This document shows, piece after piece, positions 11,075 to 24,602 of a stretch of 33,233 bases of DNA; position 1 is the stretch's first letter, and the number at the start of each line of letters is the position of its first letter. This stretch comes from Actinomycetota bacterium (GTDB taxonomy: Bacteria; Actinomycetota; CADDZG01; JAHWKV01; JAOPZY01), in assembly GCA_025963875.1 (NCBI GenBank), contig JAOPZY010000237.1, forward strand, positions 1-33,233, written 5' to 3'. The notes under the pieces were generated by a model. It searched no databases, was not told where the DNA came from, and worked only from the letters and a program-made list of their open reading frames with translations. A program made the position numbers and the translations under genes.

Positions 11075-11349
11075 GCGGTCGCGCTAGGTGGGGAGTCGGC
11101 GGTTCCCTGAACTCCAAATCCGCTTTACGGGAGACTGAATTCCCACCAGCGGCTCCGCGTGCTTGTGGCAAGCGCCTCGCATCCGGTGATGAGGGTTGGG
11201 TCCCGCGCGAGCCAGCGTCGTGAACTGGGTCAGGTCCGGAAGGAAGCAGCCCTAAGCGGAGAGCGGCAGTGCCGCGGGGTCACCTGGCCTGAGCCGGCGG
11301 TGAGGTTTGGCACCCAGGAGCGCTGAGTCCATGGTGGGTGCGCGGCCGC
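11075..11349 (+). ncRNA. ffs: signal recognition particle RNA, large (Alu-domain, Bacillus scRNA-type) form
   Basis: Helix-8 core TCAGGTCCGGAAGGAAGCAGC at 11230-11250. The 5' region GCGCTAGGTGGGGAGTCGGCGGTTCCCTG..AATCCGCT..GAATTCCC follows the scRNA Alu pattern. 5' GCGGTCGCGC pairs with 3' GCGCGGCCGC. A -10 TACTAT sits at 11063-11068, and the locus is upstream of dnaX. Confidence 0.93.
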
Positions 11350-16790: not shown

Positions 16791-18074
16791 ATGGGAATCG
16801 TCGTCCAGAAGTACGGGGGCACGTCGGTGGCGAGCACCGACCGGATCCGCAACGTCGCCCGGCGCATCGTCGCCACCGCCGAGAAGGGCCACCCGGTCGT
16901 CGTCGTCGTCTCCGCGATGGGCCACACGACGGACCAGCTCATGGGGCAAGCCCTCGAGATCTCGCCCGTGCCCCGCGCCCGGGAGCTGGACATGCTGCTG
17001 TCGGCCGGCGAGCGGATATCGATGTCGCTGCTGTCGATGGCCATCATCGACATGGGCCGCGAGGCCATCAGCCTCACGGGGTCGCAGGCCGGCATCGTCA
17101 CCGATACCACCCACACGAAGGCGCGGATCGTCGACGTGCGCGCCCGCAGGATCCTCGAGGCGCTCGACGCCGGCAAGATCGTGATCGTCGCCGGGTTCCA
17201 GGGGGTCTCGACGATCAGCAACGACGTGACGACGCTCGGCCGGGGCGGTTCCGACACCACCGCGGTCGCCCTGGCCGCCGCGCTCGGTGCCGAAGTGTGC
17301 GAGATCTACACCGATGTCGACGGGGTCTACACTGCGGACCCGAGGGTCGTGCCCGACGCCCGCAAGTTGCACGTCGCCACCTACGAGGAGATGCTCGAGA
17401 TGGCGGCCTGCGGCGCCCGGGTGCTCATGCTTCGATCGGTCGAATACGCGCGGAACTACAAGGTCGTCCTGCACGTTCGCTCGTCGTTCAACAACGAGCA
17501 GGGGACTTTCGTCAAGGAGGGTGACGAGCGGATGGAGAAGGCACTGATCTCGGGCGTCGTCCACGACACGTCGGAGGCGATGATCCGCATCCGGCGCGTG
17601 CCCGACCGCCCCGGCATCGCAGCCAAGGTCTTCGGGTCGCTGGCCGCCGAGGCCATCAACGTGGACATGATCGTGCAGAACGTGTCCGAGGACGGCCGCA
17701 CCGACCAGACGTTCACGCTGCCCAGGGCCGATCTGCCGCGCTCCGAGGAGGCCCTCGGGCGCATCGCCGCGGAGATCGGGGCCGAGGGGTGGACCGCCGA
17801 GCCGGAGATCGGCAAGGTGTCCCTCGTGGGGGCCGGCATGCGGTCGCACCCCGGCGTGGCGGCCAAGATGTTCCAGACGCTCGCCCAGGCCGGCATCAAC
17901 ATCGAAATGATCTCCACCTCGTCGATCCGCATCTCGGTCGTCGTGCAGGCCGCGGAGGTCGAGCGGGCGGTGCGGCTCATCCACGCCGCGTTCGAGCTGC
18001 CGCAGGGGGCGATCCTGCGGGAGGCCCACGGCCAGATGCCGGAGATAAGCTCGAGCGAACTGGAGGGAGTATGA
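16791..18074 (+). CDS. ask: aspartate kinase (alpha subunit, probable nested beta subunit from Met248 at 17532)
   Basis: Motifs [27 protein letters not shown] and [11 protein letters not shown], plus two ACT domains. Confidence 0.98.
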
Positions 18075-19114
18075 GAAGGCTTCCGGCCCGTCCCGTCGTC
18101 GCCGTCGTCGGCGCGACCGGCGTCGTCGGCCGCGTGATGCTCGACATCCTGCACGAGCGGGCGTTCCCGGCAGCCGAGGTGGTGCCGGTGGCATCGGCAC
18201 GCTCGGCGGGGCGCCTGGTGGCGTACGGGGACGTTCCCTTGCCCGTGAAGGTCCTGGACGAGGGGGTCTTCGACGGCGTCGACCTGGTCCTGCTCGACAC
18301 GCCCGACGACGTGGCCCGCACGTGGGCCCCGGTGGCAGCCGCAGCGGGCGCCATCGTCGTCGACAACTCGGCGGCCTGGCGGATGGACGACGACGTGCCG
18401 CTCGTGTGCCCCGAGGTCAATGCCGCAGCCCTGGAGGGCGCGGTCAAGGGCATCGTGGCGAGCCCCAACTGCACCACACTCGGCGTCGTGCTCCCCCTCG
18501 GGGCGCTGCACCTGCGCTTCGGGCTGGAGAAGGTCGTCGTCTCCTCCTACCAGTCGGCCTCGGGGGCCGGCCGGGGCGGTGTCGAGGAGTTGAGCGACCA
18601 GGTGGCCAAGCTGGCCGGCGAACCCGGCGCCGTCGAAGCGCTGGCGTCCGGCAGAGCACGCCACCTCCTGCCGGCCCCATCTGCCTTCCCCGCACCGCTC
18701 GCCTACAACGTCGTGCCGAGGGCGGGATCGCTGAAGGACAACGGTTACACGAGCGAGGAGTTGAAGCTGGTCGCCGAGACCCGCAAGATCATGGGCCTGC
18801 CCGGGTTGGCGCTCACCGCCACCTGCGTCAGGGTCCCCACCGTCGTCGGCCACGGCGCGTCCGTCTGGGCACGCTTCGCTGCCGAGGTGGACCTGGAGGA
18901 GGCGCTTGCCTGCCTGGCGGGGGCGCCGGGGGTGGAGCTCGTCGATCTCCCCACACCGCAGCTCTCGGCCGGCAGGGATCCCTCCTTCGTGGGCCGCGTC
19001 CGGACCGATCTCAGCGATCGTCACGCTCTTTGCTTTTTCTGCGCGTGCGACAACCTTCGGAAAGGTGCCGCGCTCAACGCAATTCAGATAGCGGAGCATC
19101 TTCTTCCTACGTAG
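18071..19114 (+). CDS. asd: aspartate-semialdehyde dehydrogenase
   Basis: ATGA overlap with ask. Motifs [35 protein letters not shown] and [11 protein letters not shown]. Confidence 0.98.
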
Positions 19115-19163
19115 GCCACTTCGGGCATTCGTATCGCCGGGAATTGGCTCCGCCTTTCCAAGC

Positions 19164-19193
19164 TTGCATCGGATGACGTATCTCCACTAGGAT
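19164..19193 (+). promoter_or_regulatory. sigmaA-type promoter TTGCAT-N18-TAGGAT
   Basis: Good -35 and -10 hexamers place the start at about 19200-19201, the 5' end of the structured RNA candidate. Confidence 0.65.
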
Positions 19194-19200
19194 CCCGCAA

Positions 19201-19369
19201 GCAGTTCAGATGGGTTTTGCCAAATTCTGACGGAGCCCTGCGGAGTTGAGGGCGGAGCAGAGTATCTACGTGTTCGGCTTCGGGGGGCCCGGGCGCACGC
19301 TGGGGCTGCACGTAGTGGGATTGAAGAAAACCTGTAGTGGCAGCAACCCCTGCCACATAAAAGCACTGC
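19201..19369 (+). ncRNA. candidate ~170-nt four-stem structured ncRNA (resembles the Clostridiales-1 motif as recalled)
   Basis: Closing stem GCAGT/ACTGC; hairpins at 19224-19246, 19266-19315 (G-U pairs favour the + strand) and 19337-19356; possible pseudoknot GGGTT/AACCC; promoter directly upstream. Confidence 0.62.
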
Positions 19370-19461
19370 CAAAGCGTCTAGACATCGCGCGGCGAAGCTG
19401 ACGAAACGCGCCGAGTAACGGGCAGCAAAGCTTGCCCTTGTGCTCGCGAGTCTGGAACGGA

Positions 19462-20226
19462 ATGACGGGAGGCCGGACGCTGTTCGCAACGCGACGCCGG
19501 AACGTCTGGTGCTGGGCCCTGAGCTTGGCGTCCCTCGCTTCCGTTTTCTCCGCTGTTTCCGTTGCGGTGCCGCTGACCCCCGCCAGCGGTCAGGCCGCTC
19601 CGGTTGCCCGACTCCTCGATCTGATCAACCAGGACCGTGCCCAGCACGGCCTGGGGGCGGTTTCCCTGAGCGGACCCCTGAGCGCCATCGCCCAGAGCCA
19701 GGCCAACGCCATGGCAGGGGCGCGCCGCATCTTTCAGAATCCTGCGTTCCCGGGCGATGTCCCAGCGGCCAACTCCGCCGGCGAGAACGTGGGCTACGGC
19801 CCGGACGTCGACACCGTGCACAACGCGTTCGTGGCGAGCCCCGAGCACCAGGTGATCATCGTGGGGCCCGACTACCGGGTCGTGGGCATCGCGGTCGCCA
19901 GCTCCCCCATCGGCCTCATGGTGGTGGAGAACTTCGTCGACACCGCGGGAGGGGCGGTCGCTCCACCTCCTGCCCCACCACCACCGGTGCAGAAGCCCCC
20001 GCCCCCTCCTCCGCCGAGGCCGGTCATCGTCGTGCCTGCGGCAGCGGCGGTGCCCGCCGCGCCCGCAAAACCGGTCCCGGCCGCCCCTGCGCCCGTGCCG
20101 GTGGCCGCCCCGGCCCCGACCCCCAGCCCCTCGCCCCTCCCGTCGCCGCCGGCGTTCGACATGGCGCTCTACACCCGGATGTTGCAGTGGGACCTATGGC
20201 AGACGGGGACCTCTGCGGACCACTGA
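19462..20226 (+). CDS. secreted CAP (SCP/PR-1) domain protein with Pro-rich C-terminal tail
   Basis: Signal-peptide-like N-terminus. CAP motifs LINQDRAQHGL, AGENVG, AFVASPEH and VGIAV; poly-Pro region. Start is uncertain. Confidence 0.85.
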   Translation: MTGGRTLFATRRRNVWCWALSLASLASVFSAVSVAVPLTPASGQAAPVARLLDLINQDRAQHGLGAVSLSGPLSAIAQSQANAMAGARRIFQNPAFPGDVPAANSAGENVGYGPDVDTVHNAFVASPEHQVIIVGPDYRVVGIAVASSPIGLMVVENFVDTAGGAVAPPPAPPPPVQKPPPPPPPRPVIVVPAAAAVPAAPAKPVPAAPAPVPVAAPAPTPSPSPLPSPPAFDMALYTRMLQWDLWQTGTSADH

Positions 20227-20253
20227 CCCAACCCAGCCGTCCAGCTGTCGTAG

Positions 20254-20327
20254 TCGGGAAGGGGGGATTTGAACCCCCGGCCTCCACGTCCCGAACGTGG
20301 CGCGCTGCCAAGCTGCGCTACTTCCCG
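20254..20327 (-). tRNA. tRNA-Pro(CGG)
   Basis: Minus strand reads CGGGAAG...CCACG-TTCGGGA-CGTGG...GGTTCAAATCC..CTTCCCG-A. CCA is not encoded. A -10 TAGACT sits at 20336-20341. Confidence 0.96.
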
Positions 20328-20401
20328 TAGGGCCGAGTCTACCGCCCGTACCTCTTGTCTGGTGCCTGAACCCCGCCTTCACTTGACGTCAGGATGTACG
20401 G

Positions 20402-22000: not shown

Positions 22001-22971
22001 GACGCGAACGGGAGACCCACATCGATGACGGTGGGGGCGGCCGCGGCCAGCGCCTCGGCGATCGCCAGGCCCAGGCCGGGCTCGTCGTCGGCCCGGACGG
22101 CGCGCACGTCGGCGTCATGCAACGTCGGCGACGCCGCCTCCCCTTCGAAGGCGAGGACCACCACGGGAAGACCCGCCTCCGCCAGCGGGCCGAGGTCCCC
22201 CACGTCGCCGGCGCTCACGAGGGCGACGGCGGGGCCTCGCCGCTGCCGGGCGAGGCCGAGCGCCGCCACCGGCGCAAAACCCGCGTCGGCGTCCCGTGCC
22301 GGGGCGTGGAAGGTGCCCGGCACCGGGACCGGGAACAGCGGAAGCCCCCAACGGACGGGGCCTGCATCCCAGACCGTGGGGATCTCGGCGGGGATCGCAC
22401 GGCGCAGGGCCTCGATCGACGCGGGAGGCGGCCCCGCCGCGAGCAGGCGCTCCCGTGCCGCCTCCCGCACCGCCGACACCCGGACGGCGGCGCCCTCGCG
22501 GGCCGGCCCGGGTGGGCGGGCGCTCAGAGCCGCCGCGAGCTGCGCCAGCACGGCCCTAGCGTCGCCGAGCATCTCGGAGCGTGCCGGGTATCTCCGGCTG
22601 AACACCTCGGGGTCGATGTCGATGTGGAACAGCTGGAGGGGCAAGGGGATCTGCCACCGCTTGGTGGAGCGGGCGGAGAACGAGGTCCCGACGGCAAGGG
22701 CAGCATCGGCCTGGCCCAGGAGGCGGGCGACCTCGGGTGCCCCGAAGAGCGAACCGACGGCCAGCGGGTGCGTCTCGCTCAGCGCGCCCTTGCCGGACGT
22801 GCTGGTCACCACCGGCGCCCCCAGCAGCTCGGCCACCTCGCCAAGCTCGTCCCAGGCCCGGGCGGCGACGGCACCACCGCCGGCCCAGATCACCGGGCGG
22901 GCGGCAAGCGAGAGGAGCAGCGCGGCTTCCTCGATGAGTCCGGTGGAAGGCGCCGTCGGGCCGGCCGTCAC
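21997..22971 (-). CDS. truncated/degenerate ThDP-enzyme (acetolactate-synthase-like) protein: central domain plus eroded C-terminal domain
   Basis: Motifs RPVIWAGGG, GAPVVTSTSGKGALSETHPLAVG, ADAALAVG and HIDIDP..GDARAVL. No N-terminal PYR domain and no intact GDG..NN. Overlaps both neighbours by 4 nt. Confidence 0.8.
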   Translation of the reverse strand: MTAGPTAPSTGLIEEAALLLSLAARPVIWAGGGAVAARAWDELGEVAELLGAPVVTSTSGKGALSETHPLAVGSLFGAPEVARLLGQADAALAVGTSFSARSTKRWQIPLPLQLFHIDIDPEVFSRRYPARSEMLGDARAVLAQLAAALSARPPGPAREGAAVRVSAVREAARERLLAAGPPPASIEALRRAIPAEIPTVWDAGPVRWGLPLFPVPVPGTFHAPARDADAGFAPVAALGLARQRRGPAVALVSAGDVGDLGPLAEAGLPVVVLAFEGEAASPTLHDADVRAVRADDEPGLGLAIAEALAAAAPTVIDVGLPFAS

Positions 22972-24602
22972 AGCCGGGGAGTGAGCTCGAGGATCACGCC
23001 CGCCGACATCCAGCGGGCGATGATGTCCTCGACCGTGCCCGAGACGGACTGGCGCTTGGCCACGAGCAGCGCCCCGATCTCGTGGAACTCCGCCTGGTTC
23101 TCGGGACCGATCACGCGCACCGACGCATCGAAATCCACCAGCCGGGCGTCCCTGCCCTTCCACCGCAGCGACACCTTCGCTTCCCGGACGTTGCGCGCGT
23201 CGGGAACGATCTGCTGGGGTTCGGCGGAGAGGACGAAGATCTTCCCGTTGCGGTAGACGAACCAGCAGGGCAGCGAGAGGTTGGAGGTGTCGGGGGTGAC
23301 CCAGATGATGTCGGATTTCTTGAGTCCCTCCTCGATGGCCGGCCCGATGGGCAGCGTCGCAAGCCGGTCCTCGTCGGCACCCCACCCGGCGCTGCGCTCC
23401 GGGACGTAGCCGAGCTGGTCCCACTCCGCATCCACCGCCCGCAGCACGTACCAGGCGGTGTAGTTGAAGAACTCGTCTACCGCCTCGAGCGGGTCGTCGA
23501 AGTCCTCCATGCGGATCAGCTCCTCGTGGGGGATCTGGCCGGAGTCGATCAGCTTGTGGCGCTGGGCGAGGGAGATCTCGATCGAGGCCTCGAGGCCGAG
23601 CTTGTCGTCGGGCCTTGGTCCGCCCGAGCCGCGGTCCTTGTGCGGGTCCCGCCGGAAGGCCAGGACCCACGACGGCGGCTGGGGGCTGATATAGCCCTCG
23701 GACCAGAACGTTCCGTCGCTCAGGATGGCCGATAGCAGGATCGTGGGCTTGGGGAACAGCAGCTTGAAGCCGGTCCAGTGGGCCTTGAACGTGCGGGTGA
23801 GGTTGCGCTCCTGAGCGATCGACAGCGTCCCGAGCTCGCCCGCCCCCTTGGGCACCTCGTAGTCGGACAGGCGCCGCGCGATGCGGGAGAGCACCTCGTT
23901 GGGAGCGTCGGCCTTCGGTTGGGGCACCGTGCGCTCCGCCCGGGACTTGAGGACAACCGGGGGGATGTCGACGAAGTCCCGGGTCGTGATGAGACGCTTC
24001 TCCTCCGCGGCCGCAGCTCGGGTCTCCAGCTCCGCCACGTGGTCCTCGTCGGCACCCCAGCCGATGGTCGGCTCGGGGAGATAGCCGAGCTGGTCCCACT
24101 CCGCCTCCACCGCCCGCAGGACGTACCAGGCGGTGTAGTTGAAGAACTCGTCCACGGCCTCGAGCGGGTCGTCGAAGTCCTCCATCCGGATCAGCTCCTC
24201 GTGGGGGATCTGACCCGAGTCGATCAGCTTGTGGCGCTGGGCGAGGGAGGTTTCGATCGAGGCCTCGAGGCCCAGCTTGTCGTCGGGCCGGGGGCCGCCG
24301 GAGCCGCGGGCCTTGGGCGGGTCCCGCCGGAAGGCGAGGACCCACGACGGCGGTTGGAGACTGATGTAGCCCTCGGACCAGAACTGGCCGTTGAGCAACG
24401 TTGCGGAGAGCAGGATGGTGGGGTTGGGGAACAGCAGCTTGAAGCCGGTCCAGTGGGCCTTGAACGTCCGGGTGATGTTGCGCTCAAGCCCGATCGACAG
24501 CGTGCCGATCTCCCCCGGTCCCTTCGGCACCTCGTAGTCGGCGAGATTGCGCGCGACATGGAGGCGCACATCGCTGATACCGACGACCTTCCTCAGAGCC
24601 AC
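22968..24602 (-). CDS. hypothetical protein: two tandem ~172-aa unknown domains plus a C-terminal pyridoxamine-5'-phosphate-oxidase-like split-barrel domain
   Basis: GTG follows GGAAAGGGAA. Internal duplication with a 675-bp period. The C-terminal IIWVT..PCWFVYRNGKIFVLS..VSLRWKG..FDASVRVI resembles split-barrel flavin/F420-binding domains. Confidence 0.85.
   Translation of the reverse strand: MALRKVVGISDVRLHVARNLADYEVPKGPGEIGTLSIGLERNITRTFKAHWTGFKLLFPNPTILLSATLLNGQFWSEGYISLQPPSWVLAFRRDPPKARGSGGPRPDDKLGLEASIETSLAQRHKLIDSGQIPHEELIRMEDFDDPLEAVDEFFNYTAWYVLRAVEAEWDQLGYLPEPTIGWGADEDHVAELETRAAAAEEKRLITTRDFVDIPPVVLKSRAERTVPQPKADAPNEVLSRIARRLSDYEVPKGAGELGTLSIAQERNLTRTFKAHWTGFKLLFPKPTILLSAILSDGTFWSEGYISPQPPSWVLAFRRDPHKDRGSGGPRPDDKLGLEASIEISLAQRHKLIDSGQIPHEELIRMEDFDDPLEAVDEFFNYTAWYVLRAVDAEWDQLGYVPERSAGWGADEDRLATLPIGPAIEEGLKKSDIIWVTPDTSNLSLPCWFVYRNGKIFVLSAEPQQIVPDARNVREAKVSLRWKGRDARLVDFDASVRVIGPENQAEFHEIGALLVAKRQSVSGTVEDIIARWMSAGVILELTPRL
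23366..24555. repeat. intragenic direct repeat, ~515 bp x2 (23366-23880 and 24041-24555)
   Basis: Gap-free offset of 675 bp checked at both ends. Many differences are synonymous third-position changes. Confidence 0.95.

Follow-up and report, generated by a model that had tools for sequence, protein, structure and literature searches.

A putative promoter and structured 5′ leader upstream of a CAP-domain protein gene in soil Actinomycetota

In the 347-nucleotide (nt) gap between asd and a gene for a secreted CAP-domain protein, we identified an element that is probably the promoter and structured 5′ leader (~260 nt) of the CAP-domain gene, acting in cis to control its translation. Positions are given throughout in the window, the whole stretch of 33,233 nt that was analysed. 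We are fairly confident that transcription starts at ~19200, from a TTGCAT-N18-TAGGAT promoter, and continues into the CAP coding sequence. To the further proposal that the ribosome-binding site is occluded by default, through a helix that we call H6, we would give an even chance. A preliminary description of the same DNA had seen here a discrete, four-stem, pseudoknotted non-coding RNA of ~170 nt, driven by its own promoter. A promoter-driven, structured, plus-strand RNA from ~19200 survives our analysis, but the compact four-stem pseudoknotted molecule does not.

The gene order in the window is dnaX, recR, aspartate kinase, asd, the gap and the CAP gene. As had been described, the gap (from the asd stop at 19114 to the CAP ATG at 19462) is low in GC, at 0.565-0.605 against 0.69-0.75 in the flanking genes, and is devoid of a credible ORF: since the homologues differ by indels of 1, 2, 4 and 11 nt, no ORF in the gap is kept in relatives. 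The asd gene is present in every homologous locus for which upstream sequence is available, and orthologues of the CAP protein in four relatives share 49-71% identity with it. The features of the locus, with the transcript and its helices as proposed below, are as follows.

18071..19114, + strand: asd (aspartate-semialdehyde dehydrogenase), the upstream neighbour; Pfam PF01118 (E 5e-30) and PF02774 (E 1e-41)
19164..19193, + strand: putative promoter, with -35 TTGCAT (19164-19169), an 18-nt spacer and -10 TAGGAT (19188-19193)
19201..19223, + strand: variable 5′ segment of the predicted transcript, poorly conserved and carrying indels
19224..19260, + strand: AUUCUGA block (invariant), helix Pa and hairpin Pb
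19266..19315, + strand: P2, a long irregular hairpin (CUACGUG 19266-19272 with CACGUAG 19309-19315)
19337..19356, + strand: P3, the hairpin GUGGCA(G)/(C)UGCCAC, with a variable loop
19357..19374, + strand: conserved linker with an AAAAGCA.UGCCAA block, near-invariant in 10 of the 12 homologues
19375..19459, + strand: 3′ three-way junction, with closing helix H6 and hairpins H4 and H5
19454..19457, + strand: Shine-Dalgarno (SD) site, GGAA in the window, 4 nt before the ATG and within H6
19462..20226, + strand: CAP-domain (PF00188) secreted protein gene; Pfam CAP E 4e-9, residues 52-151

The element has a narrow distribution. When 41 relatives were searched with BLASTN, the region was matched only in the same-genus genome G001. 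A covariance model built from these two sequences (R1) recovered G002, the third genome of the genus, and at E ≤ 1e-5 matched three of the 27 genomes of the order, all in genus g1, with a weak match in another family (G018, E 0.48); a second model (R2) matched three of the 113 genomes of the class, again all in g1. When metagenomes were scanned with five aligned CAP orthologues, 20 loci were recovered; 10 of them match R1 (E 2e-45 to 3e-6), two of these being identical. Together this yields 12 distinct homologues, from three genomes of one genus and nine soil-metagenome contigs, which represent about five lineages, all close kin, so that the shuffle controls used below overstate support. There is one copy of the element per genome, in a single gene context: it occupies the interval from asd to the CAP gene in all 12 homologues, as far as their upstream sequence extends, and the GGAATG start is kept throughout. 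By contrast, no R1 or R2 match was found in the leaders of the sister-genus loci L007, L008 and L028, and scanning locus L009 of G007, an unpublished genome on which none of our conclusions depends, gave no match either. When 185,579 species genomes were scanned for the exact pattern, 11 matches were obtained, of which only those on the G001 and G002 contigs are real; the other nine, which score at most 11 bits with R1 and fall in unrelated phyla, were treated as chance. On these searches the conservation of the leader sequence is confined to one genus, which is unusual for ligand-binding aptamers, and neither the phylogenetic distance nor the several gene contexts that mark a widely distributed riboswitch aptamer were found.

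The promoter reaches further. As first described, TTGCAT-N18-TAGGAT occurs at 19164-19193, its one match in the window, with none expected from 100 shuffles; it is also the single match in the whole 3.84-Mb genome, where a control pattern gave none. The promoter is retained in all 16 related loci (15 of them distinct) that have enough upstream sequence. Among the 13 loci positive with the covariance model, the hexamers and spacing TTGCAT-N18-TA(G/A)GAT are found in every one, while the sequence of the spacer varies. It is likewise present in all three sister-genus loci, from two sister genera (G004/L008, L028 and G005/L007), with TTGCGT as the -35 hexamer in L007. An E. coli-style promoter scan returned no sites, and the -35 hexamer fits the consensus at only three of its six positions. 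We infer that the promoter is active, and the position of the -10 hexamer suggests a transcription start near 19200-19202. The plus-strand orientation claimed in the preliminary description also holds: the minimum free energy (MFE) is -69.7 kcal/mol on the plus strand and -57.4 kcal/mol on the minus strand, and P2 and H6 contain U-G pairs, those in P2 being numerous and suited to the plus strand alone; both observations argue for an RNA transcribed in that direction.

Sequence conservation extends from the -35 hexamer to the CAP ATG, well beyond the first 170 nt. Between G000 and G002, fourfold-degenerate sites are saturated (identity 0.47 in asd and 0.45 in the CAP gene), and despite this, blocks within the leader are invariant between the two. 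Over the whole leader, identity is modestly above that of fourfold sites, at 0.70 versus 0.66 for G000/G001 and 0.59 versus 0.47 for G000/G002. Furthermore, a leader of 247-359 nt is maintained across three genera, though its sequence has been replaced.

Thermodynamic folding of the window sequence by itself gives nothing beyond chance, with MFE z-scores of -1.18 for 19195-19375 (28 of 200 shuffles fold equally well) and -1.08 for 19201-19470. All the stems named in the preliminary description can be drawn in the window sequence; across the 12 homologues, the full structure that they compose pairs in 68.4% of cells, and its covariation (0.098), a score that 457 of 500 shuffles reach, falls below the shuffle mean of 0.110. 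Its closing stem, GCAGU/ACUGC, was to join the 5′ end, where GCAGTTCAGA does begin at 19201, to the ACTGC at 19365-19369; the central pair of this stem (13-188) is unpaired in eight of the 12 homologues, and the stem is found only in the lineage of the window. The AACCC-GGGUU pseudoknot fares no better, as pair 26-168 fails in nine and pair 23-171 in seven of the 12, leaving it in the window and L017 only. The 5′ strands of both the closing stem and the pseudoknot lie in the variable segment at 19201..19223. A hairpin placed at 19420-19437 is paired in just 45%. The first hairpin, ATTCTG/CGGAGT, can be drawn, but two of its six pairs fail in seven and eight of the 12 homologues, and it was redrawn. 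Two of the described hairpins were upheld, the long one at 19266-19315 (86.9% of cells paired, with changes on both sides) and GUGGCA/UGCCAC at 19337-19356 (86.4% paired). An alternative pseudoknot, between the P3 loop and the GGGAU block, was rejected, being disrupted in L019 and L021.

The revised 5′ domain (19224-19356) is thus predicted to comprise Pa, Pb, P2 and P3. In Pa, 19227-19229 and 19231 pair with 19257-19260, enclosing Pb (GCCCU 19235-19239 with AGGGC 19249-19253) across a GGA/GGA internal loop; Pa is paired in 100% of cells, one pair being changed on both sides (C-G to G-U, in two sequences), and Pb in 96-97%. P2 is extended by pairing of 19275-19281 with 19302-19308 and ends in a variable tip. 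In the covariance-model alignment three of its 14 pairs are changed on both sides; among the events seen are a C-G to G-C exchange in L024 and a tip that is 11 nt shorter in L019. One pair of P3 is altered on both sides (U-A to C-G, in two sequences), and the sequence and length of its loop depend on the clade. Together, P2, P3 and Pa hold five pairs with double changes, in a structure-fitted alignment of about five lineages. On this alignment, which is fitted to the structure and leans towards it, and in which the sequences are kin, 90.3% of the cells of the 5′ domain are paired, with a covariation of 0.195 versus 0.138 in shuffles and nine cells changed on both sides versus 3.3 expected (0 of 500 shuffles reach either value). 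We take this as moderate support for the predicted structure. A P1-type helix that would close the 5′ domain in all clades was looked for and not found: the candidates tried (the 5′ segment against the AAAAGCAGUGCCAA block, UUGGC/GCCAA, CAUU/AAUG and CUGU/GCAG) were rejected, as each fails in some clade. For the linker at 19357..19374, no conserved pairing partner was found in the 12 sequences.

Downstream of the linker, the predicted three-way junction runs up to the start codon. Its closing helix, H6, pairs 19375-19383 with 19450-19455 and 19457-19459 and is paired in 96.3% of cells; one of its pairs is C-G in seven homologues, U-G in three and U-A in two, and four others show one-sided wobble changes. 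Of the two enclosed hairpins, H4 (19387-19391 with 19407-19411) is near-invariant and 96.7% paired, while H5 (19419-19424 with 19441-19446) is 88.9% paired, with one A-U/C-G exchange. The 3′ strand of H6, GUCUGG(A)NCG, includes the SD site, which reads GGAG in nine of the 12 homologues and GGCG in one. In MFE folds of five homologues, a long-range helix lies over the SD region in all five; in G002, the most distant homologue, half of H6 has been swapped for a different helix and the SD region is still paired. MFE z-scores for the 3′ domain are -1.09, -0.52, -2.12, -1.96 and +1.05. When the revised structure as a whole was placed on a MAFFT alignment, 84.5% of cells were paired, compared with 33-52% when partners were slid by one to three columns; covariation on this unbiased alignment is weak, at 0.135 versus 0.123 in shuffles (27 of 500 reach it). 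In covering the SD site and carrying a compensatory change, H6 has the hallmarks of an expression platform, and may function as one.

A comparable arrangement is seen where the sequence has changed. In the sister genus of G004/L028, a ~250-nt leader of different sequence, with strongly conserved blocks, follows the same promoter. In the RNAalifold prediction for the two sequences L008 and L028, the SD/start region is again paired with an upstream segment, and one pair has changed from C-G to U-A. This leader resembles a second orphan type, located ahead of the orthologous CAP gene. Over the whole of these leaders (L008:1212-1458 versus L028:1047-1295), RNAalifold predicts 72 pairs, and in six of these the two sequences differ by compensatory changes. 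A third leader, ~360 nt long, is found in G005 (L007, minus strand).

Could all this be a plain long 5′ UTR without regulation? Its similarity among relatives would then reflect kinship together with selection on the promoter and ribosome-binding site, and its helices would be the ordinary pairing of G+C-rich sequence. Such a UTR would be expected to fold with z-scores close to those of shuffles, to covary weakly on the MAFFT alignment and to exceed neutral sites only modestly in identity, all as seen here, and an all-against-all screen does yield many alternative helices of comparable quality. It sits poorly, however, with invariant blocks that lie far from the promoter and SD site in a comparison where fourfold sites are saturated, with the compensatory changes in P2, H5 and H6, with an SD-covering helix rebuilt from other sequence both in G002 and in the leader of G004/L028, and with the maintenance of leader length across three genera. 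We consider this reading rather unlikely, and favour a regulatory leader.

In the regulatory leader as we propose it, transcription would begin at ~19200 and pass through the leader into the CAP coding sequence. The leader would consist of the 5′ domain, with Pa/Pb, P2, P3 and the conserved unpaired blocks, followed by the 3′ junction, where H6 would join the segment just 3′ of the 5′ domain to the SD-containing strand and so repress translation. Two further helices compete with this arrangement. UGCGC/GCGCG (19373-19377 with 19406-19410), in which two pairs are changed on both sides, excludes H4 and H6; AUUCUG/CGGAAU (19224-19229 with 19458-19463) includes the start codon and is in competition with Pa. 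Both are paired in 95-100% of cells, but having been chosen post hoc from the screen of all column pairs, and being largely invariant, they serve as leads rather than tests. The competing pairings could make up a two-state switch, in which the folding of the 5′ domain would set access to the start site in response to a signal that could be a small ligand, a protein, a small RNA or temperature. That the leader is a true small-molecule riboswitch seems doubtful. Its most specific form is less likely still: here uncultured soil Actinomycetota would have a new riboswitch class of narrow distribution, with the 5′ domain as its aptamer; by switching between H6/H4 and UGCGC/GCGCG plus AUUCUG/CGGAAU in response to a metabolite or envelope signal, this domain would gate the CAP ribosome-binding site.

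We also weighed an independent small RNA of ~170-230 nt, transcribed from the same promoter, terminated or processed ahead of the CAP start, and acting in trans or by binding protein. Here the conserved promoter, presumed active, and the supported hairpins of the 5′ domain are both what would be expected, and riboswitch-like leaders, too, can give rise to stable short RNAs. A defined 3′ end was not found: an E. coli-style scan for terminator-like sites across 18900-19700 returned none, neither is there a terminator-like hairpin with a U-run, and conservation of sequence and structure goes on for a further 90 nt, to the CAP start codon, with conserved, covarying helices that engage the SD site. 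In addition, the closing stem and pseudoknot that would make the RNA compact are missing in eight to nine of the 12 homologues, and the element always lies directly upstream of the CAP gene in the same orientation. The preliminary description had reasoned that read-through into the CAP gene would make its RNA a 5′ leader, and it is to read-through that the evidence points; a leader is therefore the reading we adopt instead. Given the fixed position, the conservation up to the ATG, the pairing of the SD site and the lack of a terminator, we prefer it to a free small RNA, which we judge distinctly improbable.

Assembled contigs from public sequencing runs, none of which contained half of the sampled words, are compatible with co-transcription of leader and CAP gene and do not amount to proof. 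In two runs of one study, contigs covering 19210-19672 and 19209-19612 pass from the leader into the coding sequence, with at least 150 nt on either side of the junction, against the expectation for a small RNA that ends before the CAP start; these runs are filed as metatranscriptomic but flagged as likely to be DNA, and a contig is no proof of one continuous transcript. The two contig starts come from this single study, and contig ends and uncovered parts carry no weight, either for placing the transcription start or for gauging expression. The same applies to the contigs X3 (19137-19381, spanning the promoter) and X4, whose ends at 19381 and 19431 fall inside the leader and would otherwise suit a short RNA, and to asd, where 18700-19136 has no contig in the four runs compared. 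In an RNA run of another study, contigs cover 19228-19431 and 19564-19727.

A leader peptide is a much weaker candidate. A 15-18-codon ORF that starts at the AUG of the CAAUGCG block, and might control the downstream gene, is intact in eight of the 12 homologues (for example L018:431-478), where two substitutions are synonymous; against this, its counterpart in the window (19371-19418) reads AAAGCG and so has no AUG, the ORF stops after nine codons in L017 and is absent in G002 and L025, a 1-nt indel separates the clades and no SD-like site precedes it. We regard it as very improbable.

Searches of Rfam place the element outside the known families. A cmscan of 19100-19500 on both strands against all 4227 families of Rfam 15 gave no match at E ≤ 10, so that none of the characterised families in that release (6S, the riboswitch classes, SRP, tmRNA and others) matches at the element. 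Five related loci scanned at E ≤ 5 gave only tRNAs and two chance snoRNA matches. This disposes of the likeness to the Clostridiales-1 RNA motif (RF01699) suggested in the preliminary description from a resemblance of sequence blocks: membership of that family outside its named clade has next to no probability, since its covariance model matched neither 19100-19500 (E ≤ 10) nor the related loci (E ≤ 5). Each of the two is a candidate structured RNA with orphan status, but a published table lists Clostridiales-1 for Clostridiales and the human gut and as probably not cis-regulatory (PMC2864571), whereas the present element is found in soil Actinomycetota, directly upstream of the CAP gene, as a gene leader.

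Closer parallels are offered by the translational riboswitches and SD-sequestering leaders of Actinomycetota. Like these, the element would have a structured domain near the promoter in which unpaired blocks are conserved, a helix that sequesters the SD site, mutually exclusive pairings, no intrinsic terminator and a fixed position before one gene family; unlike the translational riboswitches, it matches no known aptamer, has been found in one genus, shows modest covariation and has no conserved P1-type helix. A further comparison is with the asd RNA motif, an Rfam family located beside an asd gene. The present element also adjoins asd, but lies downstream of it, has its own promoter, would serve the next gene and has no Rfam match. 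A literature search for RNA motifs upstream of CAP genes found nothing, which does not establish their absence in print. The element is, then, a structured orphan leader whose general kind is known, unmatched in Rfam 15.

What CAP-domain proteins do in bacteria is little understood. If the proposed leader is real, it would be an unannotated cis-regulatory RNA governing a secreted CAP/SCP-family protein in a little-known lineage of soil actinomycetes, and the signal that opens the CAP ribosome-binding site would hint at the role of the protein itself. The retention of a promoter-plus-leader unit of ~250-360 nt in three genera with replaced sequence suggests that the control itself may be under selection. 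The narrow distribution and the small number of lineages limit the value of the finding.

Several other features of the locus were observed. The N-terminus of the CAP protein resembles a signal peptide, and the protein also contains a proline-rich linker; a C-terminal block, FD.ALY.RML.W..WQ (residues ~225-254), lies outside the Pfam match at 52-151 and is conserved in all five orthologues. When the whole window was scanned at Rfam gathering thresholds, only an SRP RNA (11079-11345) and a tRNA (20254-20327) were found. The latter, a tRNA-Pro(CGG) on the minus strand, is inverted, together with ~25 nt on each side (20229-20360), relative to its counterparts in the G001 and G002 alignment; in L002, L005, L008 and L007 the tRNA runs in the same direction as the CAP gene. 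This is either a true small inversion or an artefact of the assembly of the metagenome-assembled genome. The SRP RNA, on the plus strand upstream of dnaX, matches the bacterial large SRP RNA family over its full length (162 bits, E 1e-26), and this large type is possibly noteworthy for the phylum Actinomycetota. Finally, the translation of an ORF at 22968-24602 on the minus strand (544 amino acids) consists of two very similar halves of ~250 amino acids, an internal tandem duplication.
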